From: an uncultured Gammaproteobacteria bacterium
GTDB taxonomy: Bacteria > Pseudomonadota > Gammaproteobacteria > JAADHQ01
Length of the DNA: 64,000 nucleotides
Reading direction: 5' to 3'
Assembly (NCBI GenBank): GCA_963807455.1
Contig: CAWECS010000010.1
Coordinates: 31,524 to 95,523, forward strand
Shown: piece after piece, positions 23,007 through 61,926 of the stretch
Layout of the letters: every line of letters begins with the position of its first letter
How positions within the stretch are numbered: the first letter of the stretch is position 1
Notes under the pieces: generated by a model
Told to the model about the DNA's origin: nothing
The model's input: the letters and a program-made list of their open reading frames with translations, nothing else
The model's database searches: none
Translations under genes and position numbers: made by a program

Positions 23007-23017
23007 TTTCTTCTCCT

Positions 23018-23896: not shown

Positions 23897-24002
23897 TGGG
23901 CATGTTGTCAGTATGAAATAGAGTGTATCCCTATTAATTTTGCTTACAATTCGCTATTAAAACAAACATACTGTGCATTTATGCACAGATGGATAAAAGA
24001 CA

Positions 24003-37991: not shown

Positions 37992-40397
37992 CTATTTCTT
38001 TGACTTACTTCCAGCATAAGTCTTGAACATCTTGTTCATCAACTCAATGTGCTGATCATCGGTCAGTGTTCCAGGCTGGGCCACCTTACCCCAAAGCTGC
38101 TCATTGGTCATTTCACGGTGACAACCCATACACAGACCGGTGCGCTTCATACCATCGCGCATTTCCTTGGTCAGGGACCTGGACAATGGCCAATGGGTAC
38201 CCACCGTTGCTACCTGCTCGCCCTTCTCGTTGACAATCGTGGACAAGTCGAAATCCAACCCGTCTATCTTAGGTATCTGGATCTGATAACGTCCCGGAAT
38301 TGGCTTTCCGGTCTTCTGGTCAATCAGGTCCTCGATCACATTTTCTGTGCTACGGGCCATAAATACGCCTCCAGAGATACCGTAACCCATGGCCTTCGGG
38401 TTGTTATGACAACTCTCACAGGTACGCGCCTTGCGCTGTGCTGAATGTGGCTGCACCGGTGCCATATCGATTCCCAACGGTATACGCTTCTGACCTAATT
38501 GCTTCGCCTCGTCGGTAGACCGGCCTGTCTGGTTCAACGCAATGGTCTTGCCCTTACGGTCAATCACAGTATAGATCACCTGGCAACCCGGCATCAGCGG
38601 AGTGACACGACCTTCACCATTGATGCCCAGAACCGGCTCTTCCCAACGCAAATAGGAACGGGTTTCAAACGCTTTACCTGGGCTCTTGATACCGCCTGTT
38701 CCCAGGATGGATTCAGCCGTTTCACCATCCGATGTACGCTTGTTACCGGAAGCGACCCAGTCAATATCCTGATATGGTTTGCCTTTACTGTCATTGCTGT
38801 AGTCCATTTTCACGTGACAGCCATAGCACTGCGGTACCCAGGAAGCATGACAGGCATAACATTCAAGACTCTCCGAATGTTTTTCTACCCGGTCCATAGC
38901 CACCATAGCATTCGGGCTCTTCCAGTTGTCATCCAGAGCCAACTGCTTGAGTATCGGCACTTCAAAATCATTACCTGTGGCTGAATGCAGTAAGACTTTT
39001 TTGCCATCCTTAACGACATTGCCAAAAGGATTACCGCGCGCAGTAACAAGATATCCATCTTTCTTGTCATAATGCGTTGCATAGGCTGAGGTTTCTGGCA
39101 ATGCAGCATCGGTGAGGCCACGCGGCTTGCTCGATAGCTTCTTGCCGAACTCCTCGCCATAACCCAATGGCAATTCCCACGGGAATTTACGTGGGGTGCC
39201 ATGGCAGTCTTCACATTCAATCTCTACCTGTGCCAACGTGGTGCCGAAGATGTTGCCGTCGCCATGCATATCAATGGTGGTATGACAGTCCTGGCACAAC
39301 AAGCCCCCTTTGGGATTACCTTTGCGGCTCTTGATCTGGTGATGCAGGTCATCGGAGATAAACAGGTATTTCTTGGTATGCAGTTTGGGCTGCTTCTTGC
39401 CCTGCTCATTGAATGGGCTGCCATAGGGGAATTCCATTAGACCCTGATAGGTCACACCAATACGCTTACCGCGATTATGGCAAGAGTTACAGGATTCTAC
39501 CGGAATACCAGAATAGGTTGTTGTGGGCGTTTTAACCTTGGCTTCGCGTGTAGCCTGGATGCTGTGTACCAGCATATGGCCCTGCTTGGTTTTATCGATA
39601 GTCGGATCGCCACCTTCGTAGTAGGCATCGTTACTGTAAGGTATATGGCAGGAGGAACAACCCATACCACGAAAGTCACCACGCTTCTCGCGTCCGCGCA
39701 CACCAACATGGCAGCGTTGACACTGCTGGCGCTGATAGGTCATGCCAGCAAGCTTGGGATCTTTTTCGATTTCCTCGACTGTGGGTTGTGGCACCATTTT
39801 CAGTTCTTTCGGGAACTGCTTGGGATGCGCCTTGGTCATAGCCACCATGTAATCTTTATATTCTTGCGTGCCGATATTCGGGATAGGGCCATCGGTATCT
39901 TTTACATCATAGTTACCCCACGGCACATTGTGATCAAACACTTCCTTGATGCCCCAGGTATGCAGGTTACCCTGAATCTTGCCAGCTTCTGTATTCATCA
40001 GGGATTTTTCCAGACGCTCTGAATAACTCTGGTGACAGCCGGCTTGACTGCATGTGAACTTGTTAATCCATATACTTCCTGGATCACGATAAAATTCCTG
40101 CGGACCCTTGGCTGCTTTCAGGCTCTCGGGACTGCCTGCATGCGCATCATTCTTGGTGGTTGCCTTGGGATTGCCGCCATGACACACAACACAACCATTC
40201 GCATCACCATGACCACTACCCACGCCCTTGATCTGCAACATCATCGCACTGGTATTTTCGCGAATCGGCTCCAGGCCTTCATGGCAAGCCAGACAGCCCT
40301 TCTCGTCAGCGAGCTTTTTCGAAACGGTGTCCATTTTAGCAATGGCGGTGGAAGATACAGTCAACATTAACAGCGCAAGAAGAGTGGTTATTTTCAT
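37992..40397 (-). CDS. Periplasmic multiheme cytochrome c, about 11–12 haem sites, of unassigned family
   Basis: 801 aa with signal peptide. Motifs CLACH, CVVCH, CSQAGCH (CX4CH-like), CQRCH, CSSCH, CNSCH, CQDCH, CEDCH, CYACH, CYGCH, CESCH, CMGCH. Confidence 0.8.
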   Translation of the reverse strand: MKITTLLALLMLTVSSTAIAKMDTVSKKLADEKGCLACHEGLEPIRENTSAMMLQIKGVGSGHGDANGCVVCHGGNPKATTKNDAHAGSPESLKAAKGPQEFYRDPGSIWINKFTCSQAGCHQSYSERLEKSLMNTEAGKIQGNLHTWGIKEVFDHNVPWGNYDVKDTDGPIPNIGTQEYKDYMVAMTKAHPKQFPKELKMVPQPTVEEIEKDPKLAGMTYQRQQCQRCHVGVRGREKRGDFRGMGCSSCHIPYSNDAYYEGGDPTIDKTKQGHMLVHSIQATREAKVKTPTTTYSGIPVESCNSCHNRGKRIGVTYQGLMEFPYGSPFNEQGKKQPKLHTKKYLFISDDLHHQIKSRKGNPKGGLLCQDCHTTIDMHGDGNIFGTTLAQVEIECEDCHGTPRKFPWELPLGYGEEFGKKLSSKPRGLTDAALPETSAYATHYDKKDGYLVTARGNPFGNVVKDGKKVLLHSATGNDFEVPILKQLALDDNWKSPNAMVAMDRVEKHSESLECYACHASWVPQCYGCHVKMDYSNDSKGKPYQDIDWVASGNKRTSDGETAESILGTGGIKSPGKAFETRSYLRWEEPVLGINGEGRVTPLMPGCQVIYTVIDRKGKTIALNQTGRSTDEAKQLGQKRIPLGIDMAPVQPHSAQRKARTCESCHNNPKAMGYGISGGVFMARSTENVIEDLIDQKTGKPIPGRYQIQIPKIDGLDFDLSTIVNEKGEQVATVGTHWPLSRSLTKEMRDGMKRTGLCMGCHREMTNEQLWGKVAQPGTLTDDQHIELMNKMFKTYAGSKSKK

Positions 40398-40610
40398 TAT
40401 GCCCCCTAGCAGTCACAGATAAGCCAGCTGATTACAACTTATTTTTAAAATCGTAGTAGACAGATACTGTTAAAGCAATTACATACCATACTTCTACACG
40501 GCGTCGATGCAATGTCATTGACCCAGATCAATTACTGGTAAATTCTTGATAACTGTTATTTACAAAAAATAAGCCATCCTGACACCACAGAAAACAAGAC
40601 GGTCCCAAAT

Positions 40611-40645
40611 AATAAAGCCGGGCTAATTGCGTAGCCCGGCTTTTA
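40611..40645 (-). terminator. Rho-independent terminator downstream of the YkgJ-family gene
   Basis: AGCCGGGCTA-attgcg-TAGCCCGGCT hairpin flanked by A/T runs. Coordinates approximate. Confidence 0.65.
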
Positions 40646-40680
40646 ATCACTCGCCAATAAAATTCTATTATTCAGATCAT

Positions 40681-41610
40681 CTATTTCTCAGCACCTTCCT
40701 GAGGATCTCGCACATGATACTTTTTGATATTTTCTTCATGCTTTTTCTGGATGACATCCTTGCGTTGTTCATAGCGTTGTTTGGCTGCACCTTCTTTAAG
40801 TTTGATAGAATGCTCGCCAAACAGAACCTGTTTCAGGAAACGCATACAAAATCCGACCAACACTTCATCATCTTCATCAATGCCTTTGCGCATCTCGTCA
40901 TCGATGTCGAACATGTTGACAAAACCATCGCTCTGGGTAAACAAACGAAAGGCGTCCATATCATAGGACATGGAAAATAATTGCATGCTGCGTTCACTCG
41001 GCGCGCCGACGGTTGGGCCGGCTGAGCGTTTCTTAACAATGATATCCAGCCACTCACGGTTCATGTCGTCGTAGATTTCAACGCCCTGCTGCTTGCGGAA
41101 CTCAGCAATGGTCATTGGATTATCTTCCTCATGGCCTTTGCAATGATCTTCTTTCACCACAAAATAAAGGTCTTCAAATTTTTCAGCACCTTTACGATGC
41201 ATACCCATGGTGCCATAGGGATAATAGCGACAGGCAGTGGGTCGGTTTTCATAAACGCTACATCCTTCGTCTGTCATGAACTGGCAGGCAGTACCGCCAT
41301 CCACTGGACGCATTTTTGTGCCGGGCATGCCATGAAAATCCATCTCGTAAGGACGCGTATATTTTAGTTGAGCCTGCCAGGTAGAAATATCGAAATGTCT
41401 CGCCAGTCTCAAAATGTCATAAGGCGTCAAGGTGATATCGATATTGCTGCAACAGGCATTGAAACACTTAATGCCTTTATAGCAGCTGAATGAAATCTTC
41501 GAATCCAGGGATAACTGTTGCGGCTGCACAGCAGTCTTGAAGGGTAGATCCATTTCCTTGAAAATGTTCTCGTCAGTAAATTTTTCAATGGTTGGTTTAT
41601 CGTCGCTCAT
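40681..41610 (-). CDS. YkgJ/UPF0153-family cysteine-cluster (CxxCxxCC) putative Fe-S or zinc protein
   Basis: 309 aa. Motifs CYKGIKCFNACCS and further Cys pairs (CQFMTDEGCSVYENRPTACRYYPY). The C-terminus is Lys/Glu-rich. Confidence 0.55.
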   Translation of the reverse strand: MSDDKPTIEKFTDENIFKEMDLPFKTAVQPQQLSLDSKISFSCYKGIKCFNACCSNIDITLTPYDILRLARHFDISTWQAQLKYTRPYEMDFHGMPGTKMRPVDGGTACQFMTDEGCSVYENRPTACRYYPYGTMGMHRKGAEKFEDLYFVVKEDHCKGHEEDNPMTIAEFRKQQGVEIYDDMNREWLDIIVKKRSAGPTVGAPSERSMQLFSMSYDMDAFRLFTQSDGFVNMFDIDDEMRKGIDEDDEVLVGFCMRFLKQVLFGEHSIKLKEGAAKQRYEQRKDVIQKKHEENIKKYHVRDPQEGAEK

Positions 41611-41730
41611 ACCACTTTTCCTAGCGCTTTCCGAGTTTTGTTTGCGAGCCGAGTATTCTAACAGAATTCGGCTTATATCTCACTTATAGGGCCTGCTTTA
41701 GTGTGAAAACACTATTTATAATGAATGTTT

Positions 41731-41821
41731 AACCACGGAGGACACGGAGTCAACAGAGGGAGAAAAACATAACACTAATAACCACATCATAAACTCCGTG
41801 CTCTCCGTGTCCTCCGTGGTT
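41731..41821. repeat. Perfect 19-bp inverted repeat (AACCACGGAGGACACGGAG / CTCCGTGTCCTCCGTGGTT) separated by 53 nt
   Basis: Arms at 41731–41749 and 41803–41821. Located in the 485-bp non-coding spacer between aprA (3' end) and the YkgJ-family gene (5' end). Confidence 0.75.
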
Positions 41822-42095
41822 ACATGGTTTTTTCTGGGAAATAAGCTGCGATAAGTTCGGTGAGAGTCGCTCTCGCCCTTTTGGGTAACTTTGAAATTAA
41901 CTGTACAGTTTAGAACATCGCTCTCGCCCTTCCGTGGGACGCTCCTGCGCATCCTTGCGCCCGCGTCATTTGAACATCCATGTTCTTCGCTTCGCGATGT
42001 ATGCCCATCCATGGGTAACAGGCCATGCCTTCGAAAAGTAAATAAACGGTCCACAAAAACCCGAGGTTTTCACAGAATAATTTCCGAAGTAATTA

Positions 42096-44027
42096 TCAAG
42101 CGTTTTTGATCAACTGAACATAAGGTTCTTTAACCAGAGACCATTCTTTGGTCTTGCGGTCATATGTAGAGTTAACAAAACAGTTCCAGTTCTTGTCGTC
42201 CAGGTCAAGGAAGTCTGCACGATAGTAGTAACCCGGATAACGAGTTTCTTCACGGAACTGAATGTGCTTCATGTGTGCTTCTGCAGCAATGATGCGGTGG
42301 TAGTTTTCCCACGCACGCAGCAGTTCATGCAGGTCTTTCGCACGCATTTTTTCAGCATCTTCCTTCAGCATGCCCAGCTTACGTTCAGCAATACCCATCA
42401 TAGCAGCGTTAGTCTGGTAGTAAGTAGAAACACCGGCTACGTACTCGTCCATGCATTTTTGCAGACGGAACTGCAGCATTTTTGGAGTGATGTAGTTAGG
42501 ATTGATATCAATCGCTGTGGTGTAATCCTTGTGCTCAAGGAAGTTACGTACTGGCTTATAGATTTCTGCGACCAGATCATCAACTGAATCTTCAAGCTCT
42601 GGTTTGTAGTCTTTATTATCCAATGCGAAACGGATCATGGACTTGGCAGCCAGACGACCTTCAGTGAATGCACCTGAAGAGAACTTGTGGCCAGAAGCGC
42701 CAACACCGTCACCGGCAGTGAACAGACCATTAACAGTTGTCATACCACGATACTTGTTGCCGTTTGAACCCCAGCTCCAGTGCTCAGGAACACCTGGCAG
42801 ATCTTCCGGGCCAGAAACCCACAGACCGGCACAGCCAGCGTGTGAACCTAACAGGTAGGGTTCTGTTGGCATCAATTCTGACATTTCTTTATCAGGCTCG
42901 ATGTTTTCACCCGCCCAGATACCACACTGACCGATAGTCATGTCAAGGAAGTCTTCCCAGGCTTCTGCTTCCAGATGCTTGATTTCCTTTGGTGTCATTG
43001 TTTCAGCCAGCTTAGCCAATGCAGATGGAGTGTCCATGAAGATAGGACCCTTACCCGCTTTCATGTCGGCGATCATTAAATGGTTACGTAAACAAGTACC
43101 CATTACGTGACCGTGTACATGTGTACCATAGTTATGCTCTTCTAACAGATGAGCATTTGTTACCTGGTAATCTTCACCCTGTGCATTCATTGCTTTCGCT
43201 TTGAAGAGCAGGAACCACGCGCCTACAGGACCGTAACCGTCTTTGAACCGTGCAGGTACGAAACGGTTTTCAAGCATTGTGCCAGTCGCACCTGCTTCAA
43301 GAGCCATCGCATAAGTAGAACCGGCATTCCATACTGGATACCAGGCACGACCCTGACCTTCACCAACTGAACGTGGACGGAATACGTTAACCGCACCACC
43401 ACATACCAGCAGACAACACTTGAATTTGTAGACGTAAATCTTGTCTTCACGTACTGAGAAACCAACGGCACCAGCAACACGCTTGGGATCGTTCTTGTCA
43501 TTAATCAATTTAACGATAAAGACATGTTCCTGAATGTTTTCTGTTCCGAGCGATTTTTTAGCAGCTTCAGCAACGATCCATTTGTAGGATTCACCGTTGA
43601 TCATGATCTGCCATCTACCTGAACGAACCGGCTTGCCACCTTCGGTCAGTTTCTTGTCTTCGTCACCTAGTTGTTTCCATATAGGCAGACCCCATTCTTC
43701 GAACAGATGAACTGAACTGTCTACATGACGACCTACGTCATAGACCAGGTCTTCACGGATGATGCCCATCAAGTCAGTTTTAACCATACGAACGTAATCT
43801 GAAGGATCGTTGTCACCCATGTAGGTGTTGATCGCTGACAGACCCTGTGCAACAGCACCAGAACGGTCCATAGCTGCTTTATCAACCAGCTTGATGTTCA
43901 GGTCGTTGGCTTCTGCATAACGCATTATTTCAACACCAGCACCACAGGCTGCCATACCGCCACCGATGATAAGAATATCAAGTTCTTCTTCGACGACTTC
44001 CGGATTTCCAAATCCATAACCGGACAT
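42096..44027 (-). CDS. aprA: Adenylylsulfate (APS) reductase alpha subunit AprA
   Basis: FAD-binding GGGMAACGAG. Strong AprA-specific similarity throughout. Start placed at ATG 44027 (MSGYGFGNPEVV), with GAGAGG 6 nt upstream; the track start at 44042 lies inside this ribosome-binding site. Confidence 0.9.
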   Translation of the reverse strand: MSGYGFGNPEVVEEELDILIIGGGMAACGAGVEIMRYAEANDLNIKLVDKAAMDRSGAVAQGLSAINTYMGDNDPSDYVRMVKTDLMGIIREDLVYDVGRHVDSSVHLFEEWGLPIWKQLGDEDKKLTEGGKPVRSGRWQIMINGESYKWIVAEAAKKSLGTENIQEHVFIVKLINDKNDPKRVAGAVGFSVREDKIYVYKFKCCLLVCGGAVNVFRPRSVGEGQGRAWYPVWNAGSTYAMALEAGATGTMLENRFVPARFKDGYGPVGAWFLLFKAKAMNAQGEDYQVTNAHLLEEHNYGTHVHGHVMGTCLRNHLMIADMKAGKGPIFMDTPSALAKLAETMTPKEIKHLEAEAWEDFLDMTIGQCGIWAGENIEPDKEMSELMPTEPYLLGSHAGCAGLWVSGPEDLPGVPEHWSWGSNGNKYRGMTTVNGLFTAGDGVGASGHKFSSGAFTEGRLAAKSMIRFALDNKDYKPELEDSVDDLVAEIYKPVRNFLEHKDYTTAIDINPNYITPKMLQFRLQKCMDEYVAGVSTYYQTNAAMMGIAERKLGMLKEDAEKMRAKDLHELLRAWENYHRIIAAEAHMKHIQFREETRYPGYYYRADFLDLDDKNWNCFVNSTYDRKTKEWSLVKEPYVQLIKNA

Positions 44028-44084
44028 GTCTATACCTCTCAATTCTTTAAATTAATTATCTTGAAAACAATGATTCAATGCGAC

Positions 44085-44543
44085 TTAGGCAAACTGACTC
44101 ATGTCACAAGAATGAACATCATTGTCGAACAGCTTGTCGTAGGCAGCCAGATCAGCAGATGCAGCAGCAGGGCGACCGGCTTGAGGATCTGCAGAACCTT
44201 CAGCTGTTGTTCTAATCGGGAACTTAAAGCGTTTCTCGTTGCCGTTACGGAACTTGATCGTCCACATAATGGAGTTAGTTCCACGCAATGGCTGCACAGA
44301 ACCACCGAGAGGTACGATATCGGCGTAGTGACGACACTCAATTGCTTGCTGAGGACAGATCTTCACACAGGAATAACATTCCCAGCATTGTTCAGGCTCC
44401 TGGTTCCAGGCTTTCATTGCATGACCAGTTTCAGAGCCATCTTTATCAAGCTTCATCAGATCATGTGGACAGATATACATGCATGCAGTTTTGTCCTGAC
44501 CTTTACAGCCGTCACACTTGTCGGTACGTACGAATGTAGGCAT
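44085..44543 (-). CDS. aprB: Adenylylsulfate reductase beta subunit AprB (2x[4Fe-4S])
   Basis: MPTFVRTDKCDGCKGQDKTACMYICPHDLM... with two ferredoxin Cys clusters and the AprB C-terminal tail. Confidence 0.9.
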   Translation of the reverse strand: MPTFVRTDKCDGCKGQDKTACMYICPHDLMKLDKDGSETGHAMKAWNQEPEQCWECYSCVKICPQQAIECRHYADIVPLGGSVQPLRGTNSIMWTIKFRNGNEKRFKFPIRTTAEGSADPQAGRPAAASADLAAYDKLFDNDVHSCDMSQFA

Positions 44544-45012
44544 TTCGTTTTCTCCAAACGTTTACCGCGGTTTAAAAATCCCACTGGATTAATAGTGGCT
44601 CATGAGTTTTGATCTAATGGCCGTAAATCTTAATTCTTGTGTTGTAACGTCCTTAGCTGATGTCACTAAAATCAGCCTTTATCATCAGATAAGGACGCTG
44701 CCAGTCCGCCGAATGCGTGCTTTATTTCAGCCGATTCACGCCGATAACTTGATCCGGGACGCTAACCATATATATTTATACAGACAATGCAAAACAGTTA
44801 TATCTTTGCGGTAGCATAAATCTATCTTATTGAAGAAATGCTAATTTACGACCATATATGCTATTGTTTTTAATGACTATATAAATATTTTTATTTTTAA
44901 CTACCGATATATTAGAATATACTTATTTTATGCTATTCTAAATAATCTTAATTGGTAAGGCCATACGCTTGCCTGTACAGTATACCGACTCTTTTACTAG
45001 GTTATATAATTC

Positions 45013-47919
45013 ATGAGCACACCTAAACCCATACACGACCCTATCACGCAACCTGCAAGTGATCGCATCGAGGTCAAAAATACTACCTGTTATATGTGCG
45101 CCTGCCGTTGTGGTATCCGCGTCACTTTGCGAGACGGTGAAGTCCGCTACATTCAGGGCAATCCTGACCACCCGCTAAATAAGGGGATTATCTGCGCCAA
45201 GGGCTCCTCCGGGATTATGAAGCAATACTCGCCTGCGCGCCTTACCAAGCCGCTACGGCGCAAGGCATCGGCAGATCGTGGTGACAATGAATTCGAGGAA
45301 ATCAGCTGGAATGAAGCCTTCTCGATCATGGAAGAGCGCCTGGCCAAGATTCGCAAGACCGACCCACGTAATTTTGCGCTGTTTACCGGCCGCGACCAGA
45401 TGCAGGCAATGACCGGACTGTTTGCCAAACAATATGGCACACCTAATTACGCGGCCCACGGCGGTTTCTGCTCGGTCAATATGGCGGCTGGTATGATCTA
45501 TACCATTGGTGGTTCCTTCTGGGAATTCGGTGGACCGGATCTGGAGCGCTCGAAGTTATTTGTCATGATCGGTACAGCCGAAGACCATCACTCCAATCCA
45601 CTGAAAATGGAACTGTCCAAGTTCAAGCGCCAGGGTGGCAAGTTTATCTCCATCAACCCGGTACGTACCGGTTACTCTGCCATTGCCGATGAATGGATTC
45701 CGATCAAGCCCGGCACCGATGGTGCGCTATTGATGGCCCTGAACCATGAAATCATCCGCACCGGTCTGTATGACCGCGAATTCCTGATCGAATACAGTAA
45801 CTCGGCAGAACTGATCAACATGGACGACAACAGCACCGAATACGGCATGTTTGTCCGTGCCGAGGTTCCGGAAGAAGAAGGCTGCTTTGATCCGCAAAAC
45901 AAACTCTGGTGGGATCGCAACACTGACAAAGCGATTGTTGCAGATCGTGCAATCGACCATGACCCTTACCTACTGGGCGAATATGCGCTTCAGGACGGTA
46001 CGCCGGTAAAGACCTCGTTCCAATTGCTGCATGAGCGCCTGGAAAAATACACCCCGGAATGGGCAGAAAATATTACCGGTATTCCTGCTGAAACCATACG
46101 ACGACTGGCACATGAAATGGGCATTACCGCCCGTGATGAAAAAATAGAATTACCGATCGCCTGGACCGATGTCTGGGGACGTGAGCATGATACCGTTACC
46201 GGTAATCCAGTCTCATTCCATGCCATGCGTGGCCTGGCTGCACATTCAAATGGTTTCCACTCGATTCGCGCACTGTCTATATTAATGAGTTTGCTCGGCA
46301 CCATTGACCGTCCCGGCGGTTTCCGTCACAAGGCACCGTTCCCACGACCGATTCCGCCTTGTGCGAAAACCCCGAAGGGACCGGAAGATGTGCAGCCGGA
46401 AACCCCTCTGAATGGCATGCCGCTGGGCTGGCCCGCCGATCCGGATGACCTGTTTGTCGATGACAAGGGTGGGCCGGTACGCCTGGACAAGGCCTTTTCA
46501 TGGGAATTCCCGCTGTCTGTGCATGGTATGATGCATAATGCGATCACCAATGCGTGGCGTGGCGACCCGTACCCGATCGACACGATGATGATTTTCATGG
46601 CCAACATGGCCTGGAACTCCAGCATGAATACCGAGCAGGTACGTGAAATGCTCAACGACAAGGATGACAACGGTGAGTACAAAATACCTTATCTGATCGT
46701 TTGTGACGCCTTCCAGTCGGAAATGGTTGCATATGCGGATCTGGTGTTACCTGATACCACGTACCTCGAACGACACGACGTCATGTCCATGCTCGATCGC
46801 CCTATCTCGGAATATGATGGTCCGGCTGATTCTGTCCGCATACCGGTAGTACCACCCACAGGCGAGTGTAAACCGTTCCAGGAAGTATTGATTGAAATGG
46901 GATCGCGCCTGAAATTACCGGCGTTTGTCAAAGAAGATGGTTCACGCAAATTCCGCGACTATCCGGATTTCGTCGTTAATTTTGAAACTGAACCGGGCTC
47001 CGGCATTGGCTTCCTGTCTGGCTGGCGTGGCAAGGGCGGCGAAAAATTCATGAAGGGCGAGCCTAATCCGAACCAGTGGGAAATGTACGAGAAAAACAAT
47101 TGCGTTTTCCATTACGAATTACCACGTTCCTTCCAGTATATGCGTAACTGGAACAAGGGTTATCTGGAATGGGCCCAGGAACATCGCCTGACGCGTTACG
47201 CCGAGCCCATTAACATTCATATCTATTCTGAAGTGTTACAGAAATTCCGCATGGCCGCGCAAGGCAAGACAGATGGTAAACAACCACCGGATCATTTGCG
47301 CAAACGCGTCGAGACCTACTTTGATCCGTTACCATTTTACTATGAGCCGCTGGAATCGCAGCTAACTGACAAACACAAGTACCCGTTGAATGCGGTCACT
47401 CAACGTCCCATGGCGATGTATCATTCCTGGGATTCACAAAATGCCTGGTTGCGACAGATCCATACCTATAATTATCTGTACGTCAACCCGGTCACTGCCA
47501 AAACACAAGGCATTGGAGATGGCGACTGGATCTGGGTTGAATCGCAATGGGGCAAGGTACGCTGCATGTGCCGCTTCACCGAAGCGCTGGAACCGGGCAC
47601 CGTCTGGACCTGGAACGCAATCGGCAAAGCCAGTGGAGCGTGGAATCTGGAACCGGATGCCAACGAATCCAAACAGGGTTTCTTGCTGAACCATGTGATC
47701 TCGGAAGAATTACCGAAGCACGATGCAGGCGAACATGTTTCCAACTCTGACCCTGTCACCGGTCAGGCTGGCTGGTATGACGTGCGCGTTCGTATATACA
47801 AGACTGAGGCCAATGAAGCGCCAGTGACCATGCCACAGTTCGATGCGGTCAAACCGGCACCCGGGCAAGCAAAACGAAAATCCTGGTTAGGTTTTTTTGC
47901 TGGCGGCAAAAAACAGTAG
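45013..47919 (+). CDS. soeA: Molybdopterin oxidoreductase catalytic subunit with no Tat signal; best fit is sulfite-oxidising enzyme SoeA
   Basis: 968 aa. N-terminal [4Fe-4S] motif CYMCACRCG with no twin-arginine leader. Followed by FeS and membrane-anchor subunits of the sizes known for SoeABC (about 108, 27 and 36 kDa). Next to aprBA. Confidence 0.65.
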   Translation: MSTPKPIHDPITQPASDRIEVKNTTCYMCACRCGIRVTLRDGEVRYIQGNPDHPLNKGIICAKGSSGIMKQYSPARLTKPLRRKASADRGDNEFEEISWNEAFSIMEERLAKIRKTDPRNFALFTGRDQMQAMTGLFAKQYGTPNYAAHGGFCSVNMAAGMIYTIGGSFWEFGGPDLERSKLFVMIGTAEDHHSNPLKMELSKFKRQGGKFISINPVRTGYSAIADEWIPIKPGTDGALLMALNHEIIRTGLYDREFLIEYSNSAELINMDDNSTEYGMFVRAEVPEEEGCFDPQNKLWWDRNTDKAIVADRAIDHDPYLLGEYALQDGTPVKTSFQLLHERLEKYTPEWAENITGIPAETIRRLAHEMGITARDEKIELPIAWTDVWGREHDTVTGNPVSFHAMRGLAAHSNGFHSIRALSILMSLLGTIDRPGGFRHKAPFPRPIPPCAKTPKGPEDVQPETPLNGMPLGWPADPDDLFVDDKGGPVRLDKAFSWEFPLSVHGMMHNAITNAWRGDPYPIDTMMIFMANMAWNSSMNTEQVREMLNDKDDNGEYKIPYLIVCDAFQSEMVAYADLVLPDTTYLERHDVMSMLDRPISEYDGPADSVRIPVVPPTGECKPFQEVLIEMGSRLKLPAFVKEDGSRKFRDYPDFVVNFETEPGSGIGFLSGWRGKGGEKFMKGEPNPNQWEMYEKNNCVFHYELPRSFQYMRNWNKGYLEWAQEHRLTRYAEPINIHIYSEVLQKFRMAAQGKTDGKQPPDHLRKRVETYFDPLPFYYEPLESQLTDKHKYPLNAVTQRPMAMYHSWDSQNAWLRQIHTYNYLYVNPVTAKTQGIGDGDWIWVESQWGKVRCMCRFTEALEPGTVWTWNAIGKASGAWNLEPDANESKQGFLLNHVISEELPKHDAGEHVSNSDPVTGQAGWYDVRVRIYKTEANEAPVTMPQFDAVKPAPGQAKRKSWLGFFAGGKKQ

Positions 47920-47986
47920 CGAGTGACTAGTGGCTAGTAGCTAGGCTCTTTCTTTCCTCGCTACTAGCTACTCGATACTAGTCACT
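47917..47986. repeat. REP-like imperfect palindromic element in the soeA-soeB spacer
   Basis: tagCGAGTGACTAGTGGCTAGTAGCTAGG ... CCTCGCTACTAGCTACtcgatACTAGTCAC. The outer 8-bp stem TGACTAGT/ACTAGTCA pairs with an inner stem GGCTAGTAGCTAGG/CCTCGCTACTAGC. Confidence 0.7.
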
Positions 47987-48023
47987 TTTATATGCAATGA
48001 AATTTTATTAGGAACTGTCAAAC

Positions 48024-48755
48024 ATGACACAACTAGCATTAGTAATAGATTTAAACGTCTGCGTCGGCTGCCATGCCTGCGTGACCAGCTGTAAGCAATG
48101 GAACACATCTGGTCCTGCCGGTGCGATGAGTGATGATAACCCTTACGGCAAGGATCCCACCGGTACTTTTTTTAACCGCGTGCAATCATTTGAAATTGGC
48201 ACTTATCCGAACACAGAGCTGGTACATTTTCCTAAAAGTTGCTTGCATTGTGAAGAGCCTCCCTGTGTACCTGTTTGCCCGACGGGTGCCAGCTACAAGC
48301 GTGAGTCCGATGGTATTGTACTGGTCGATTATGACAAGTGTATCGGCTGCAAATATTGCTCATGGGCCTGCCCTTATGGTGCCCGTGAACTGGATGAACA
48401 TGAAAAGGTCATGAAAAAATGCACCCTTTGTGTCGATCGTATTTATGATGAATCATTACCTGAATCCGAGCGCAAACCAGCCTGTGTGCTGGCCTGCCCA
48501 ACCAATGCCCGTCTGTTTGGTGATGTACATGATTCTGAATCAGAAGTATCCGTGACCATCCGTGAATCCGGTGGCTATCAGCTGATGCCTGAGTGGGGTA
48601 CCAGCCCGGCCAACCATTATCTGCCCAGACGCAAGACCAAGATCAAGATTCATGAAGATGAATTGATACGCGCAGATAATCCGTTGAAGAAAGAAGGCCA
48701 GAAACCCAAGACGATTGTTGATGGTACTACTCTGGATGATATTACCAGTTGGTAA
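48024..48755 (+). CDS. soeB: Four-cluster ferredoxin subunit of the Mo-oxidoreductase (DmsB/PsrB-like; SoeB)
   Basis: 243 aa with four Cx2Cx2Cx3CP-type motifs. Confidence 0.65.
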   Translation: MTQLALVIDLNVCVGCHACVTSCKQWNTSGPAGAMSDDNPYGKDPTGTFFNRVQSFEIGTYPNTELVHFPKSCLHCEEPPCVPVCPTGASYKRESDGIVLVDYDKCIGCKYCSWACPYGARELDEHEKVMKKCTLCVDRIYDESLPESERKPACVLACPTNARLFGDVHDSESEVSVTIRESGGYQLMPEWGTSPANHYLPRRKTKIKIHEDELIRADNPLKKEGQKPKTIVDGTTLDDITSW

Positions 48756-48761
48756 CATCAT

Positions 48762-48887
48762 CAGTAGCGAGGAACTAGTAGCTAGTGGCTAGAAAAGTCA
48801 AAAGCAAAAGTCCTCAAAATAAATTATTTATTGAATTCAACGTAGCAAATGCCTTTCCTAGACACTAGCTACTAGCAACTAGCAACT
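48762..48887. repeat. REP-like inverted repeat pair in the soeB-soeC spacer, same family
   Basis: cAGTAGCGAGGaaCTAGTAGCTAGTGGCTAG --65 nt AT-rich-- CTAGACACTAGCTACTAGCAACTAGCAACT. Confidence 0.7.
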
Positions 48888-48890
48888 GGA

Positions 48891-49880
48891 GTGAAACGAC
48901 CCATGCATCCCGCATTTTCAGTCATATTTTTAACGACACTTATCGGTGCAGGCCAGGGTCTGTTCCTGGCACTGTTCACGGCACAAAGTTATGCTGCGGT
49001 AGGTTTTGTCAGTATACAAAACCCGCATCAGTTCTACGCCTACGGCAGTGGTATTGCTTTGCTGTTATTGATTGGCGGCCTGCTGGCTTCCTTTTTTCAC
49101 CTGGGACATCCTGAACGAGCCTGGCGCTCGGCAGCCCGCTGGCGCACATCCTGGCTGTCACGAGAAGTTATCGTGCTGCCGGCATTTATGTTTTTTGTTT
49201 TTATCTATGGCGTCATGCATTTTTTCGGCTGGGATCCCATCGTTATTGATACGCAGCAACCTCTGCAGGGCCAGCTCAGTTTATATGTTGGCATTATAGG
49301 CACAGTGCTTAGCTTTGCTTTATTTATCAGTACTGCGATGATCTACGCCTGCCTGAAATTCCTGCAGGAATGGCACAGCCCGTTAACTGTCATCAATTAT
49401 ACATTACTGGGAACAGCCTCAGGATTTACACTCGCAACCGCCTATTCCGCGATCATGGCACCTGAGCTGGTGACCCTGTTTGGCACCTGGGCAACTATTA
49501 TCACTCTGACAGCACTGGTTAGTCGTAGCGCTTCACTACTACGAAATTCACGCATCAAACATAAATCCAGCCTGCAAACGGCAATTGGTGTGCGTCATAC
49601 CAGGATTGAGCAGAAAGCCATGGGACTGATGGGTGGTTCTTTCAATACCCGCGAGTTTTTCCATGGCGCAAAAATGAGTGTATTTAAATCGATAAAATGG
49701 ATATTCCTGATATTGGTTTTCCTGGTGCCGGTCATTTTACTGACTATCGGTATGAAAAGCTCTAACCTCGATATACTGATTAGCTCGTTTGTTGTTCAAT
49801 ATATCGGCTTACTGGCAGAACGCTGGTTTTTCTTTGCACAGGCAAAACACCCTCAAAACCTGTATTACGAAACAGTGTAA
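48891..49880 (+). CDS. soeC: NrfD/PsrC-family membrane anchor subunit (SoeC)
   Basis: 329 aa with about 8 TM helices. The track start is GTG 48891. ATG 48903 (MHPAFSV...), with GGAGTG upstream, is the more likely start. Confidence 0.6.
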   Translation: MKRPMHPAFSVIFLTTLIGAGQGLFLALFTAQSYAAVGFVSIQNPHQFYAYGSGIALLLLIGGLLASFFHLGHPERAWRSAARWRTSWLSREVIVLPAFMFFVFIYGVMHFFGWDPIVIDTQQPLQGQLSLYVGIIGTVLSFALFISTAMIYACLKFLQEWHSPLTVINYTLLGTASGFTLATAYSAIMAPELVTLFGTWATIITLTALVSRSASLLRNSRIKHKSSLQTAIGVRHTRIEQKAMGLMGGSFNTREFFHGAKMSVFKSIKWIFLILVFLVPVILLTIGMKSSNLDILISSFVVQYIGLLAERWFFFAQAKHPQNLYYETV

Positions 49881-52092: not shown

Positions 52093-52737
52093 TTAATTAT
52101 CGCCAGACCAGCTCATGCCTTTATGGCAATCATTACATGGACGCTTGCTATCCTCAAACTGCTTATGTAGCTTGCCATCACTATCGAAATCCGCCGGCAA
52201 TTGATGGGCGATACCCATATGACAGTCAATACAGGTCATATTCTCACTGATGGCGCGCTTGTGTTTCACATAGGATAATTTGCTTTGACTGGCCAGCGCC
52301 ATAGACTTTATGCTGTGACAATTTCGACATTCATGCGAGTCCGATTCCTGCATAGAACCCCACACATGAGTTGCCAATGTCAGACGCTTTGCCTCAAATT
52401 TCTCTTTGGTATCGATGCTACCTATAATTTTATGAAACAATTCGTTGGTCGCCTTGACCTTGCGGATAAATTTATGCGTCCATTCACGCGGCACATGACA
52501 ATCGGGACAGGTGGCTCGCACACCGGTTCGATTCTCATAATGAATGGTATTTTTGTATTCCGTGTAAACATTCTCTTTCATCTCATGACAGGATATACAA
52601 AATGCCTCCGTATTAGTCAGCTCCATGGCAGTATTGAAGCCACCCCAGAAAATGATGCCTAGAATAAAAAACAAAATTAATGCCATGACTGGATAACGCA
52701 GGTTAAAATTGAGTATTTTTTTTATAAAATTTCTCAT
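52093..52737 (-). CDS. NapC/NirT/NrfH-family membrane quinol dehydrogenase cytochrome, with five CXXCH motifs
   Basis: N-terminal TM. Motifs CISCH, CPDCH, CRNCH, CIDCH and an extra C-terminal CNDCH. 214 aa. Overlaps the upstream napF-like gene by 4 nt. Confidence 0.75.
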   Translation of the reverse strand: MRNFIKKILNFNLRYPVMALILFFILGIIFWGGFNTAMELTNTEAFCISCHEMKENVYTEYKNTIHYENRTGVRATCPDCHVPREWTHKFIRKVKATNELFHKIIGSIDTKEKFEAKRLTLATHVWGSMQESDSHECRNCHSIKSMALASQSKLSYVKHKRAISENMTCIDCHMGIAHQLPADFDSDGKLHKQFEDSKRPCNDCHKGMSWSGDN

Positions 52738-53318
52738 GATTCAGTTTTTGCCTGCAAGGAAGTGATCAATACGGCCTTAGGCTCGACAATACAGGCTTCC
52801 CTGCACAGGCCACAACCGACACAAGTGCTCTGATTAATTCTCGGCTTTTCCATTTCCCATATCAGTGTGTCCGGCAATGGACAACTTCCATAACAGGCGC
52901 CACACTCAGGTCCCGAATAAGGCAAGCAATCGGCTGTATTAATCATTGCCTTGGCCAGTAAGGGCAAAGTAATTTCATCATCCTCTTCAACATCATCTAT
53001 AAGTAGTGCCTTTGGCTCACATGCTTTCACACAAGGCCAGTCAGCACATAAGTGACAAGCCTTGTTGAGTAAATCCAATGCCGGAGTATTCACTACTTTG
53101 GCACCCAATCTGGCCTTGAGTGGAAATATCACCTGATGTGGACAAGCACTAATACATTCACCACAACGCGTACAGGTAAGCAGAAATTCCAGCTCCTCCA
53201 GCGCATAAGGAGGACGAATCCAGCGAACAGCATCGGCTTTAACTTTATCATCCGCTTCTTTTACAACTGTCTCGGTTGCTTTACTTATTGTCTGCCTGAA
53301 AAATGCTCTTCTATCCAT
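52734..53318 (-). CDS. napF: NapF-like ferredoxin-type protein (multiple 4Fe-4S)
   Basis: 194 aa with three or four Cx2Cx2Cx3CP-like motifs (CTRCGECISACP, CHLCADWPCVKACEP, CGACYGSCP, CVGCGLCREAC). Confidence 0.6.
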   Translation of the reverse strand: MDRRAFFRQTISKATETVVKEADDKVKADAVRWIRPPYALEELEFLLTCTRCGECISACPHQVIFPLKARLGAKVVNTPALDLLNKACHLCADWPCVKACEPKALLIDDVEEDDEITLPLLAKAMINTADCLPYSGPECGACYGSCPLPDTLIWEMEKPRINQSTCVGCGLCREACIVEPKAVLITSLQAKTES

Positions 53319-53391
53319 TGTTTGCCTCGTAGCCCTCTGTTTGCTCCTGATGAACCCTTGAGACTCACCACTTCGTTGCAGTAACTCACTA

Positions 53392-53462
53392 AGTAGCGAG
53401 TGGCGAGTAGCAAGGATTTAACCTGGTTTTCCTCGCTACTAGCCACTCGCCACCAGCTACTA
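53392..53462. repeat. REP-like palindromic element (same family as the soe spacers) between the napH-like and napF-like genes
   Basis: AGTAGCGAGTGGCGAGTAGCAAGG -15 nt- CCTCGCTACTAGCCACTCGCCACCAGCTACT then TTTTTT. Confidence 0.7.
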
Positions 53463-53468
53463 TTTTTT

Positions 53469-54878
53469 CTACATCCTCATCGTCATGGGCTGTGCCATTA
53501 ACCACAGGTCAAATCCATGCATTAATAATGCGAAAATAATAATCGGTAACACCCAGAGTTTACTGGTTGCGTGAAGGCTAAAGCCCCGATAACGAATCAC
53601 CTGTATCGCTAACCAGAAACCGAATAACATCAGACCAGCCTGCAACCAGAACAGCGTATCCTGCGAAATAATCATTTGCATATGACGCTGATGTTTTTCC
53701 ATCATACTTAACGGTTGTGTTCCTATGCCCAAAGGATTCAGGAACAGAGCCACAAGATCATGTGACTCCCTGACCAGGTGATTCAGGTTATGGGCAATAT
53801 GATAGGAAAATGCCAATGGCAGGGACACGAACGCCAGTGCTGAAAAAACCTGCCGGTATCGATTCCCTGCTGCCATCCATTTATTGGCCCAATACACCAG
53901 CAACGCATATATACCGATAGGTGCCAACATGATAAACAACATGCCCACACTAAAACTGAATAGTAACTGTCCCGAATCACCGACCCAGCGACCGAATTGA
54001 CTCATGCCATCGAACCAGAATGGCAACATGGTAATACCGTGAAAACTGGTCAGGGTCAGTAGACCAAGCATGAACCAGGCCTCATCCCAGCGTGGTCTTG
54101 CATCCTGCTTCACTTCGACACTCTGTGGACGCAGTTGCCAGGATATATTCTGATGCGGACAACTCTGAACACAATTGCCACAAGAGGTACAAAAGGTATT
54201 TTGTTTGAGCGTTCCCATGACCAGGTTGGTGGGGCACGGCTCGATCAGGTCGGATCCATGATAACATTCCAGTGTCTTACAATCCGCACACACATCGTGA
54301 TTAATAGGCCTCAATTCCACGGGTGCCAGCTGCGAATAATAACCTACCGTTCTCCCTACTGGACAAAAATAGTGACAAAATGCCTTGTTCTCGAATAACG
54401 CCAGGGAGATCGTTGCCATGACCACCATTAGCAATGATAGCAGTGCTGTCGCATAAGGGGCCGTGGTCACACCGACACCCAGTTCAAACCAGGTCAGCGC
54501 CATAAACATCAGCAAGGCAGGCCAGACATTGCGTAACCAGGCAGGCACTTTCAGGTTAAGACTGTTATTAGGCTTGGCCCGCTTCCATAGTCGCCGGCGT
54601 ACGAGCCAGGTGGCGATCGCATCCCATGGGCAGATGGCACACCAGGCCGAGCCCAGAAAGAAAATGACAATAATCAGACCTGCCCACCACAAATTCCAGG
54701 TCAATACCGTGGCCAGGTTTCGCTCCGGTACCTGGGTCCCCTGCAGTCCCGCGATGATCACTGTCATAAAGATAGTCACTGCCACTATTTTCAAAAACAA
54801 TAATGGCCATGGACTCGCATTCAGGAAGCGCACCAGCCATCCAATGAGCGGAATCTTGCCTAGGGACAGACTCAGCAT
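53469..54878 (-). CDS. NapH/MauN-family integral-membrane polyferredoxin, long form with an extra C-terminal membrane domain
   Basis: CxxxCP-type motifs in a membrane context (SAWCAICPW, FCHYFCPVG) plus two soluble ferredoxin motifs (CTSCGNCVQSCP). 469 aa. Confidence 0.65.
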   Translation of the reverse strand: MLSLSLGKIPLIGWLVRFLNASPWPLLFLKIVAVTIFMTVIIAGLQGTQVPERNLATVLTWNLWWAGLIIVIFFLGSAWCAICPWDAIATWLVRRRLWKRAKPNNSLNLKVPAWLRNVWPALLMFMALTWFELGVGVTTAPYATALLSLLMVVMATISLALFENKAFCHYFCPVGRTVGYYSQLAPVELRPINHDVCADCKTLECYHGSDLIEPCPTNLVMGTLKQNTFCTSCGNCVQSCPHQNISWQLRPQSVEVKQDARPRWDEAWFMLGLLTLTSFHGITMLPFWFDGMSQFGRWVGDSGQLLFSFSVGMLFIMLAPIGIYALLVYWANKWMAAGNRYRQVFSALAFVSLPLAFSYHIAHNLNHLVRESHDLVALFLNPLGIGTQPLSMMEKHQRHMQMIISQDTLFWLQAGLMLFGFWLAIQVIRYRGFSLHATSKLWVLPIIIFALLMHGFDLWLMAQPMTMRM

Positions 54879-55560
54879 GCCTTGCCTTGACAGGCACCCT
54901 GGCTAACAACGCCCATACTGATACCAGCAACATAAAGGCCCAGACCAGATAGACCAGATACTCAGGCAAGCCCGGATGGCTCATCACCATCAGGCTTTTA
55001 TCCTGCTGAGCCGTCTGTATCTTCCCTCTCAGCAAACGTTTTCTTTGTGCAATATTGACCAGCACGAGTACAGAAAAAATCGCCATCGCGGCTATACCAA
55101 TCGGACCAATGGCTGAATCCTGCCCTATCTTTAATGGAAAATCGATCGTGTAGGGCTCACCTTGCGCGTGAAAATTTGCGCTGATAATATATTTACCCGC
55201 TTCATTGATCAGAAAGCCCTGCCGGTAAACTCCATCATCAATATTCTGCGTTCCCAAAGTTTCTCGATGGCCACCGAACCAGCGATCATCACGTATTGTA
55301 AATTCGACCTGGCCATCAAATGGCTTGCCACTGTCACGATGCGTAGCATACAGATTCAAGCGCCCCTGCTTACCCGGCTCGGGAAAGGCGGGATAAACCA
55401 TGTAGGTGACGTAGTAATTACCTATCTGGGTTTCAACCTGCATACTGGGCGGGGTGTTGGAATCCTCACTCAGGCTGTAAGCAGGTCGACCGAGGACATG
55501 GTGTGCGCTAACACTGTCACTAACTAAAATTGCCATCAAGCAGATCAGTGTTCGAATCAT
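54879..55560 (-). CDS. Periplasmic protein with signal peptide and His-His motif, ending in a TM helix. Its frame runs without a stop into the napH-like gene; the 3' boundary is unresolved and a frameshifted fusion is possible.
   Basis: The track ORF 54568–55560 is protein-like only for its first ~225 aa (MIRTLICLMAILVSDSVSAHHVLGRPAYS...TM LVYLVWAFMLLVSVWALLA). The remainder overlaps the napH-like gene out of frame. Confidence 0.4.
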
Positions 55561-55631
55561 CTATTTAAAAACCTTTATGTAAATTAAATAATATTAAGCT
55601 CTGGCGCATATCATCACTTTATTTTTACCTG

Positions 55632-56264
55632 TCATCGTATCCATTTATGCCGTTGACCAGCACCATGCTTTGCTATTGTACCATCCTCACGATTGACTAC
55701 CCAGATAGGCAGACTCGGGTGGGGACAGACTTCAACACATAAACCGCAACCGACACAACCATCACGCACAACCGGCTTATAGAAATTAGCGAAATCAAAT
55801 CCGATCGCTCGATCCCCCAATGGGCATATCGCCACACAGGCACCACAGACGCCCTGATCAACCCAGGGATAACAAGCACTCTGATCGATTTGCGCAATAC
55901 CCATATCGACCTCGAGTCTTGGTGTCGGTGTCAGCGATTCTGTCGGGCATACGTCCATACATTTATCACACAGAATACAGGCCTTTTGTTCAGGATCAAT
56001 ATAGGGGGTATTGATTTTATCTCCGCCTTCACGGGTATAAAAACGGATACAACGTGGAGGGCAAACTTCACCACAGAGGCCGCAGCCAATACAGGCTGAT
56101 ATAAATGCTTGATCATCTTTCAATGCACCCGGCGGGCGTAGACGCCGACGCACATCCGCCTGTGCCGAGGGTGAAATAACCCTTGAAAAACCGAATGGCA
56201 ATGACGCCGCCAGTAGCACGACCAGGGAGCGTGCTGTTGTTGTCAGAAAACTGCGTCTTTTCAT
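55632..56264 (-). CDS. napG: NapG/MauM-family periplasmic 4x[4Fe-4S] ferredoxin with Tat signal, second copy
   Basis: MKRRSFLTTTARSLVVLLAASLP Tat leader. Four Cx2Cx2Cx3CP motifs. Confidence 0.75.
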   Translation of the reverse strand: MKRRSFLTTTARSLVVLLAASLPFGFSRVISPSAQADVRRRLRPPGALKDDQAFISACIGCGLCGEVCPPRCIRFYTREGGDKINTPYIDPEQKACILCDKCMDVCPTESLTPTPRLEVDMGIAQIDQSACYPWVDQGVCGACVAICPLGDRAIGFDFANFYKPVVRDGCVGCGLCVEVCPHPSLPIWVVNREDGTIAKHGAGQRHKWIR

Positions 56265-56278
56265 GATTGCATGCTCAA

Positions 56279-57307: not shown

Positions 57308-57356
57308 AATAATTAACTCAAGCTTTCAGCTTAACGCTGGCTGGCGGATAACATGC

Positions 57357-57935: not shown

Positions 57936-58030
57936 TTTAATTCCGGGACCAGAAACGAGAGACCGGGTAACAGGCAAGCCCTGTAATACAAACCTGATCC
58001 CTCGTTGCTAATACCTAGTCCCTTTGCACG

Positions 58031-60733: not shown

Positions 60734-60750
60734 AATCTTGATCCTTTGTC

Positions 60751-61410: not shown

Positions 61411-61926
61411 AGCGCTCCTTTTTCTTTTGTTTGAGAGATTCAATAACAGCGTGCTGTTACAGTGCGCTCGCAGACACTGCGACATATTGACGCAGGTCAA
61501 TAAACGCACTGAAAATGTGCAAACAAATCCATTTTTTGCAGCAAATCAGTGCCTGCAACTATTAACTCTGCTTAAACGTTTCACACGATCATGGATATCT
61601 GACAGGCTTTTTTAGACGATTATTTATTTTATATTCATATAGTTATACAATTTATGACTTCATATGAATAAACAAATTCCGGATTGCTTATTCGCCATAT
61701 TTATAAAGGCATTACTAATCTAATGGCAAATAGCGGATCATCCTGCCCCACTCGGCCGGCTTCCTCTGTTATAGTTCGCTCACATTATTGGCCTGACAAG
61801 ATTCGGCGAAGGTGCATGAGAACACTCCCCGCCGCAGCCATACTCTGTCATAAGCGTCAGAGAGCAGTGTTGTTACCAATAGATGCCAATAACATTACAT
61901 TTTGATATCACTAAGAGGATAGACAC

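Follow-up and report, generated by a model that had tools for sequence, protein, structure and literature searches.

A lineage-II-type aprBA module beside divergent soeABC in a predicted cytoplasmic sulfite-oxidation locus of an uncultured gammaproteobacterium

A stretch of 64,000 nucleotides from an uncultured gammaproteobacterium (contig CAWECS010000010.1), analysed at its full length and referred to here as the window, carries genes for two predicted routes of cytoplasmic sulfite oxidation. The genes aprB and aprA, which encode the subunits of adenosine 5'-phosphosulfate (APS) reductase, are followed on the minus strand by a gene of the YkgJ/CxxCxxCC family, here named cxx, and are flanked on the other side by the divergent soeABC genes for a molybdenum (Mo) enzyme; the ATP sulfurylase gene sat lies farther along the plus strand. 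The coordinates are given in Table 1. This is probably an ordinary locus for cytoplasmic sulfite oxidation, in which AprBA belongs to lineage II, its QmoAB-HdrCB partner is encoded elsewhere, and the cxx product serves as an accessory protein. An earlier reading of the same DNA (the first-pass annotation) had described intact aprBA genes flanked by a YkgJ-type protein and soeABC, and thus the direct (Soe) and the indirect (Apr-Sat) sulfite routes in one neighbourhood. The genes it named were confirmed, including both flanks by Pfam matches of cxx and of the Mo enzyme genes, and, as it had also stated, no AprM or Qmo gene was detected beside aprBA. A Qmo gene was not found elsewhere in the window either.

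Table 1. Features of the apr-soe locus and of sat (window coordinates)
Feature	Position	Strand	Description
Terminator-like hairpin	40614..40643	-	12 pairs, 7 of them G-C, then a T-rich tail; right after the cxx stop
cxx	40681..41610	-	309 aa, soluble, YkgJ/CxxCxxCC family (PF03692)
aprA-cxx spacer	41611..42095	.	485 bp
aprA	42096..44027	-	APS reductase alpha subunit, 643 aa from ATG at 44027; TIGR02061
aprB	44085..44543	-	APS reductase beta subunit, 152 aa; TIGR02060
aprB-soeA divergent intergenic region	44544..45012	.	469 bp
soeA-type catalytic subunit	45013..47919	+	968 aa, 110.0 kDa, Mo-bis(pyranopterin guanine dinucleotide) type; N-terminal 4Fe-4S Cys motif
soeB-type subunit	48024..48755	+	243 aa, 27.0 kDa, four iron-sulfur (FeS) Cys motifs; no twin-arginine translocation (Tat) motif
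soeC-type anchor, DmsC/NrfD kind	48891..49880	+	329 aa from GTG, 36.8 kDa
sat (ATP sulfurylase)	61927..63112	+	92% identical to the 394-aa Sat of L081; frameshifted as assembled

Both APS reductase subunits scored well above the cutoffs of their families. AprB reached 193.6 bits against TIGR02060 (cutoff 135.65), and AprA reached 941.7 bits against TIGR02061 (cutoff 641.75) over model positions 1-616 of 616, together with a match of 91.8 bits to the APS-reductase_C domain (PF12139). The open reading frame (ORF) of aprA can be extended upstream from the ATG to a TTG at 44042. Alignment to the enzymes of Archaeoglobus fulgidus (1JNR) and Desulfovibrio gigas (3GYX), using the residue list of PMC2211403, revealed that the catalytic and flavin adenine dinucleotide-binding residues of AprA are all kept (Leu-A70, Asn-A74, Trp-A234, Arg-A265, His-A398, Arg-A317, Val-A273, Gly-A274, His-A446, and Phe-A448), as is Trp-B48 of AprB. 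Judged by these scores and residues, aprB and aprA are both intact.

The Apr proteins of sulfur-oxidising bacteria fall into lineage II, which is related to that of sulfate-reducing bacteria (SRB) and associated with Qmo, and lineage I, which is associated with AprM (PMC2211403). Lineage II AprB is marked by a surface loop, K-G-x-D/E-K/R, after Cys-B13 (Meyer & Kuever, PMC2211403), whereas in lineage I AprB this loop is missing and an acidic insertion is found in a beta-sheet segment (PMC2211403). The window AprB reads CDGC-KGQDK-TAC at this place and aligns ungapped with the corresponding segments of D. gigas (CDGCKGGEKTAC) and A. fulgidus (CDGCKALERTAC). Its residues 41 to 129 are ungapped against the SRB and archaeal AprB, and the acidic insertion is thus not seen. 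The protein also has a 6-residue insertion, DGSETG, of the type of Thiobacillus denitrificans, whose AprB carries an additional six-residue loop (PMC2211403). In AprA, Phe is kept at A261 (ENRFVPARF) and not replaced by Ile, the lineage I state according to one slightly ambiguous sentence in PMC2211403, and Tyr-A95 is replaced by Met, the same state as in D. gigas and deltaproteobacterial SRB. The D. gigas subunits matched those of the window at 879 bits for AprA and 187 bits for AprB. By four published sequence markers, the window AprBA is assigned to lineage II (SRB-like), and AprM is therefore not its expected partner.

No ORF with three or more predicted transmembrane (TM) segments was found from 40398 to 45012, that is, between the gene for an 801-aa cytochrome beyond cxx and soeA. 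On its upstream side aprB borders on the divergent promoter region of soeA, with no co-directional 5-TM gene ahead of it. Three membrane ORFs of the window belong to no family (566..1651, 4154..5047, and 12948..13418), and each of them is more than 28 kb from aprBA. A search for an AprM candidate among multi-TM ORFs beside aprBA in 80 related loci gave only scattered ORFs whose position was not conserved, in addition to SoeC; the one in locus L077 is the gamma subunit of a formate dehydrogenase according to NCBIfam.

These 80 loci come from GTDB representative genomes that were scanned with AprA as query, and their AprA is 67-80% identical to that of the window. QmoA and QmoB were encoded within 10 kb in 7 of the 80 loci and were lacking from this range in the other 73, so that an unlinked Qmo partner is the norm in the clade of the window AprBA. 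The sat gene was directly upstream of aprB in 42 of 72 loci. In eight loci of the set soeA lay within 10 kb of aprBA, and the soeABC-aprBA pairing recurs in L021, L022, L048, L052, L053, L054, L057, and L059.

Relatives nearer than those of the GTDB scan came from a search with SoeA. In L082 (GCA_947258795.1), with identities of 93% for AprA, 90% for AprB, 81% for cxx, and 87% for SoeA, the order is hdrB-hdrC-qmoB-qmoA, cbbQ, and cxx-aprA-aprB divergent to soeABC, and the Qmo-Hdr cluster lies 1.2 kb beyond cxx. L084 and L086 are parts of one 93-kb marine-sediment contig (AprA 94% and SoeA 91% identical), on which cxx-aprA-aprB is again divergent to soeABC and is followed by a Nap-like gene cluster as in the window, while qmoA-qmoB-hdrC-hdrB is found about 25 kb from aprBA, upstream of nnrS and ccmABC. 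The first-pass annotation had noted that aprBA has no aprM or qmoABC partner beside it and asked how AprBA exchanges electrons, naming the YkgJ-like protein or a distant qmo/hdr as possibilities. A view of the enzyme as unusual and partner-less is not supported. Because the enzyme is of lineage II and QmoAB-HdrCB is usually unlinked, this puzzle has mostly dissolved, and we infer that the window genome carries a qmoAB-hdrCB cluster as its closest relatives do.

The third gene of the module, cxx, was examined in the same sets of loci. Its product matched PF03692 at 43.5 bits (gathering threshold 23) over residues 45-146; NCBIfam gave no match to it, and no TM segments were predicted in it. Homologues were numerous (4,414 hits) and carry the NCBI name 'YkgJ family cysteine cluster protein'. 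Eight Cys residues (C43, C49, C53, C54, C109, C117, C127, and C157) and two His residues (H156 and H160) are invariant in the family, and a C-terminal helical domain is also conserved. The AlphaFold2 model of the protein had a predicted local distance difference test score of 80.4, and no relative was found in the PDB by sequence or fold. A remote relationship to the CCG domain of HdrB was rejected at an hhalign probability of 0.6%. DVU0851, whose gene follows qmoABC in Desulfovibrio vulgaris, was likewise rejected as a counterpart, since according to the literature it has no homologues outside Desulfovibrio. A literature search for YkgJ/CxxCxxCC proteins together with aprBA or APS reductase found no paper.

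The linkage of cxx to aprA was tight in both directions. Among the loci with room for it, cxx was encoded on the same strand no more than 1 kb downstream of aprA in 60 of 76. In the reverse test, a metagenome scan using an alignment of cxx homologues, 67 loci had room for aprA; it stood directly upstream of the cxx homologue in 57 of them, and the other 10 represented unrelated housekeeping contexts. The gene is thereby the most constant neighbour of lineage-II-type aprBA and outranks sat, qmo, and soe. From this gene order, cxx is recognised as a conserved third gene of proteobacterial lineage-II aprBA operons, and the hairpin behind its stop codon likely marks the end of an aprB-aprA-cxx transcription unit.

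The first-pass annotation had proposed the YkgJ-like protein as a possible route for the electrons of AprBA in place of Qmo. This proposal is weakened, since L082 and seven genome loci (L012, L030, L039, L040, L052, L053, and L067) have both cxx and qmoAB-hdrCB, and the cxx product is soluble; cxx is therefore no stand-in for Qmo. The protein is a reasonable candidate for an accessory subunit, an adaptor, or a maturation factor of AprBA. A more specific role is tentative: cxx might be an overlooked component of lineage-II Apr, either an adaptor of the Fe-S or thiol-disulfide type that links AprB to an acceptor (QmoAB-HdrCB or another) or a maturation factor, and it might even be the immediate acceptor of AprBA where no Qmo is at hand.

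Several minor observations concern the surroundings of cxx. At 485 bp, the spacer between aprA and cxx is longer in the window than in L084 (222 bp) and L082 (400 bp), and its sequence matched no related locus compared. A weak terminator-like hairpin is present at 42076..42050, immediately after aprA, and a long inverted repeat, CCACGGAGGACACGGAG ... CTCCGTGTCCTCCGTGG, also lies in the spacer, with a run of T behind it on the plus strand. A 112-aa ORF in the spacer (41716..42054) was rejected as a gene; it has no family match, its DNA was unmatched in the related loci, and it is probably spurious. Among the 80 genome loci, 16 have a CbbQ/NorQ-type AAA+ gene after cxx (L002, L006, L026, L043, L050, L054, L068-L072, and L079 among them), and many of these 16 are betaproteobacterial; a gene for a partner of about 700 aa, which by eye has the look of a CbbO/NorD-type von Willebrand factor A protein, often stands beside the AAA+ gene. 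The closest relatives have a lone cbbQ beside qmoA (L082 4848..5672; L086 7523..8335), and the gene is not present in the window. The CbbQ/NorQ-type gene may represent a maturation system tied to Apr/Qmo. Upstream of sat/aprB, L007, L025, L038, and L042 encode a 6-TM protein with the look of a TauE/SafE-type (DUF81) sulfite exporter, and a second, similar cluster was seen farther upstream in L005, L012, L015, L017, and L019, both judged by eye.

The product of soeA showed the Pfam domains Molybdopterin, Molybdop_Fe4S4, and Molydop_binding, and that of soeB showed Fer4_11. No RR motif occurred in the first 60 residues of SoeA and SoeB, and the FeS Cys motif of SoeA begins at residue 26 with no hydrophobic stretch ahead of it. 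The soeC product has at least six strongly hydrophobic segments, and comparison with L084 makes the ATG at 48903 its probable start. The description of SoeABC in the first-pass annotation accordingly stands for the Mo subunit without a Tat signal and for the FeS subunit, but its NrfD-type anchor does not, as the window copy of SoeC matched DmsC (PF04976) and not NrfD; the copies of relatives match both. Subunit sizes of ~108, ~27, and ~36 kDa, with four clusters in the FeS subunit, were reportedly obtained for SoeABC by Dahl and co-workers in 2013. Blocks of the aprB-soeA intergenic region are conserved in L082, L084, and L081, a sibling locus described below, even though L081 has no aprBA.

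SoeA is 80-96% identical to the members of a large, tight family that includes proteins named SoeA by IMG, and its identity to those designated 'sulfite dehydrogenase (quinone) subunit SoeA' is 81-84%. It is 82% identical to a Thiohalobacter thiocyanaticus protein, which was placed in the SoeA clade by a published phylogeny (PMC6504805). By name, the top NCBIfam and PDB matches of the Mo enzyme were PhsA and PsrA of Thermus thermophilus, as would be expected of a polysulfide, thiosulfate, or tetrathionate reductase and not of a sulfite dehydrogenase. These matches are, however, weak and partial: with 247 bits, PhsA falls well short of its cutoff of 694, and PsrA, the nearest solved relative, gave 142 bits over the N-terminal 240 residues only. 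TtrA (110 of 1750 bits) and the DmsA family (188 of 778 bits) were also far below their cutoffs, and SoeA reached no NCBIfam equivalog cutoff for PhsA, TtrA, DmsA, ArrA, NapA, or Fdh. Psr, Phs, and Ttr enzymes are periplasmic, whereas the A and B subunits encoded here have no Tat signal. The first-pass annotation had named grouping with polysulfide or tetrathionate reductases and a cryptic Tat signal as grounds against its assignment; membership of the Psr/Ttr/Phs groups and a Tat signal were looked for through NCBIfam scores and the RR scan, and neither was found. The reductase alternative is very improbable and, as far as the sequences allow, close to excluded. Because of the identity to the SoeA family, the low Phs, Ttr, and Dms scores, and the cytoplasmic orientation, the assignment as a cytoplasmic SoeABC-type enzyme stands, with sulfite oxidation as its predicted activity.

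The sat gene starts 12.0 kb from soeC, and the distance given by the first-pass annotation was therefore correct, but the gene is not intact as assembled. An extra T follows GAA near 62134, where L081 reads GAA ACC ATG, and residues 1-69 and 70-394 are consequently in different frames. The lesion represents either a pseudogene or an assembly error, and the latter accounts for it equally well. Two further genes are broken in the window. The homologue of a 506-aa gene of L084 (53469..55560) is split near 54870-54990, and a Fer4 and Pyr_redox oxidoreductase gene (26867..28166) is split into 268- and 150-aa ORFs in different frames. Frameshifts in at least three of about 50 genes suggest either an error-prone assembly or gene decay.

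The sibling L081 (GCA_947258755.1), whose SoeA is 95% identical, is syntenic with the window on both flanks, from the 801-aa cytochrome gene to soeABC, but is without the segment corresponding to window positions 40399..44518, which holds cxx-aprA-aprB. The junction, at L081 9140..9560, retains the aprB-soeA intergenic region, the ribosome-binding region of aprB with 11 of its codons (MPSFLGTYRGV*), and about 20 nt of the 3' end of cxx. This pattern is that of a clean deletion which took out the entire cxx-aprA-aprB module. Allochromatium vinosum can dispense with APS reductase and Sat (PMC3779200), and the deletion, together with the frameshift in sat, suggests that the indirect Apr-Sat branch is dispensable in the clade of the window as well. 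It is conceivable that this branch is being lost in the lineage and that SoeABC carries the sulfite flux, with aprBA still intact and its partners damaged or gone; the frameshift in sat, the deletion in L081, the dispensability in A. vinosum, and the lack of qmo at the position it has in relatives would all fit. On the other hand, none of aprA, aprB, and cxx is truncated and their key residues are all in place, and the frameshifted genes of the window fit assembly or sequencing error equally, so that the sat lesion may be an artefact. Loss of the Apr-Sat branch is thus considered quite unlikely as the explanation of the locus.

Four results weigh against an ordinary locus with its Qmo partner encoded elsewhere. 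First, tblastn with queries from related loci detected no homologue of QmoA, QmoB, HdrB, or HdrC in the 64 kb and returned only trivial ferredoxin similarity. Second, a search that took in members of all multi-member clusters placed no QmoB at least 80% identical to that of L082 on a contig of 237,174 bp, the size on record for the contig of a 100%-identical SoeA; any qmo cluster must consequently lie on a different contig or have been missed in assembly or binning. The first-pass annotation had named qmoABC immediately beyond the window as a ground against its reading, and this search, limited to QmoB of that identity, gave no sign of it. Third, the relative has qmoAB-hdrCB upstream of nnrS, a site without a syntenic counterpart in the window, in which nnrS (1856..3040) and ccmA (28462) are held about 25 kb apart by extra DNA and synteny is lost to the left of nnrS. 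Fourth, given the sat frameshift and the deletion in L081, the indirect branch itself is possibly dispensable or decaying.

The absence of Qmo/Hdr from the 64 kb and of a close QmoB from the larger contig would also fit a genome that has neither AprM nor Qmo/Hdr and in which the electrons of AprBA pass to another acceptor, with cxx as the leading candidate for an Fe-S or thiol-disulfide carrier or adaptor. The reciprocal linkage of cxx and aprA and the invariant Cys and His residues of the protein are in keeping with such a role, and the complete genome of Sulfurifustis variabilis, which carries a sat-aprBA copy, contains no hdrAACB (PMC5024460). This precedent is weakened by the presence of AprM with the other aprBA copy of that organism. 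Moreover, the closest relatives of the window do have Qmo, cxx co-occurs with qmoAB-hdrCB in the eight loci named above, and a soluble protein could not alone provide a link to quinone. We therefore regard a partner-less genome as unlikely. An AprBA served by an unlinked QmoAB-HdrCB agrees with what has been described elsewhere: Sat, AprBA, and QmoABC are encoded in separate loci in Thiocystis violascens (PMC3779200), and for proteobacterial sulfur oxidisers the use of QmoAB-HdrBC or AprM has been described (PMC10504309).

Under the preferred reading, in which the Qmo partner is unlinked, the host would be an uncultured marine-sediment gammaproteobacterial sulfur oxidiser with two cytoplasmic fates for sulfite. 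In the direct route, the membrane-bound, cytoplasm-facing SoeABC would oxidise sulfite to sulfate and pass the electrons via SoeB to quinone at SoeC. In the indirect route, the APS reductase of the aprB-aprA-cxx operon would form APS from sulfite and AMP, and Sat would convert APS to sulfate and ATP. The two electrons from AprB would most likely be transferred to a soluble QmoAB-HdrCB complex of the HdrAACB type, encoded elsewhere as in the closest relatives. AprM, belonging with lineage I, would not be the acceptor, and the cxx protein would act as a conserved accessory of the apr operon without replacing Qmo. The enzyme activities and the direction of electron flow are predictions.

Compared with known systems, the module resembles the sat-aprBA of the T. 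denitrificans type in its AprB, which combines the lineage-II K-G-x-D/E-K/R loop with the extra 6-residue loop. The T. denitrificans-type locus L069 likewise has cxx after aprA and no adjacent qmo, and its AprA is 70% identical. The window differs from this type in that sat is 12 kb away and frameshifted instead of lying upstream of aprB, where soeABC is found in divergent orientation, and unlike in Betaproteobacteria, cxx is not followed by a cbbQ/cbbO-like pair. As in A. vinosum, both cytoplasmic sulfite routes would exist in one organism, and the subunit sizes and the cytoplasmic orientation of SoeABC agree. A. vinosum, however, has a lineage I AprBA whose genes share a transcript with aprM, the gene of a 5-TM anchor (sat-aprMBA), whereas the window enzyme is of lineage II and has no such ORF beside it; nor have soe and apr been reported as neighbours in A. 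vinosum.

The expected partner type for the window AprBA is QmoAB-HdrCB (HdrAACB), as exemplified by SCL_2523-2520 of Sulfuricaulis limicola. It is encoded beside aprBA-cxx divergent to soeABC in L082 and 25 kb from it in L084/L086, but is missing from the 64-kb window. The aprBA-qmoABC loci of Desulfovibrio and Chlorobi encode closely related AprBA, but the window has cxx downstream in place of qmoABC, and its enzyme is presumed to be oxidative. S. variabilis strain skN76 offers a precedent for a sat-aprBA-type locus without a Qmo/Hdr partner, with the difference that AprM accompanies its other aprBA copy.

A partner-less AprBA, if true, would bear on a long-standing gap, namely how electrons leave oxidative APS reductases. 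As it stands, the locus opens no new angle on AprBA electron transfer, and the divergent pairing of aprBA with soeABC is already recurrent in public genomes. The sole element of some novelty is the conserved, uncharacterised cxx, a candidate for a subunit or assembly factor that has been overlooked and could be tested cheaply. The deletion in L081 and the possibly broken sat fit a picture in which SoeABC forms the core route for sulfite and Apr-Sat is optional, and the several frameshifts in the assembly are a warning for the reading of its genes.

The remainder of the window contains ccmABCEFGHI, a porin gene, genes for tetratricopeptide repeat proteins and several multihaem cytochromes, a response-regulator diguanylate cyclase gene, and a CheW-type gene; scans with Rfam and for tRNA genes gave nothing in the window. 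The Nap-like cluster adjoining soeABC (52093..61509), conserved at 14749..22718 in L084, encodes a NapC/NirT protein, three NapG-like and two NapH-like ferredoxins, two family-less proteins, a dihaem cytochrome c, and a 900-aa Mo enzyme that scored 330 bits against NapA (cutoff 904). Its gene content and this score identify the cluster as a divergent Nap-like system. The 801-aa multihaem cytochrome gene (37992..40397) that adjoins the apr module, and whose position is kept in L081, gave a partial match of 212 bits to the selenite/tellurite-reduction cytochrome ExtM (cutoff 800). The stretch of about 25 kb at 4154..28166 separates nnrS and a 224-aa gene from ccmA, which are adjacent in L086. 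It contains a multihaem cytochrome cluster with a 4-TM protein and an 819-aa protein (4154..11137), as well as genes for NhaA, an SSF transporter, and a 598-aa protein with ankyrin and Sel1 repeats (25102..26898).

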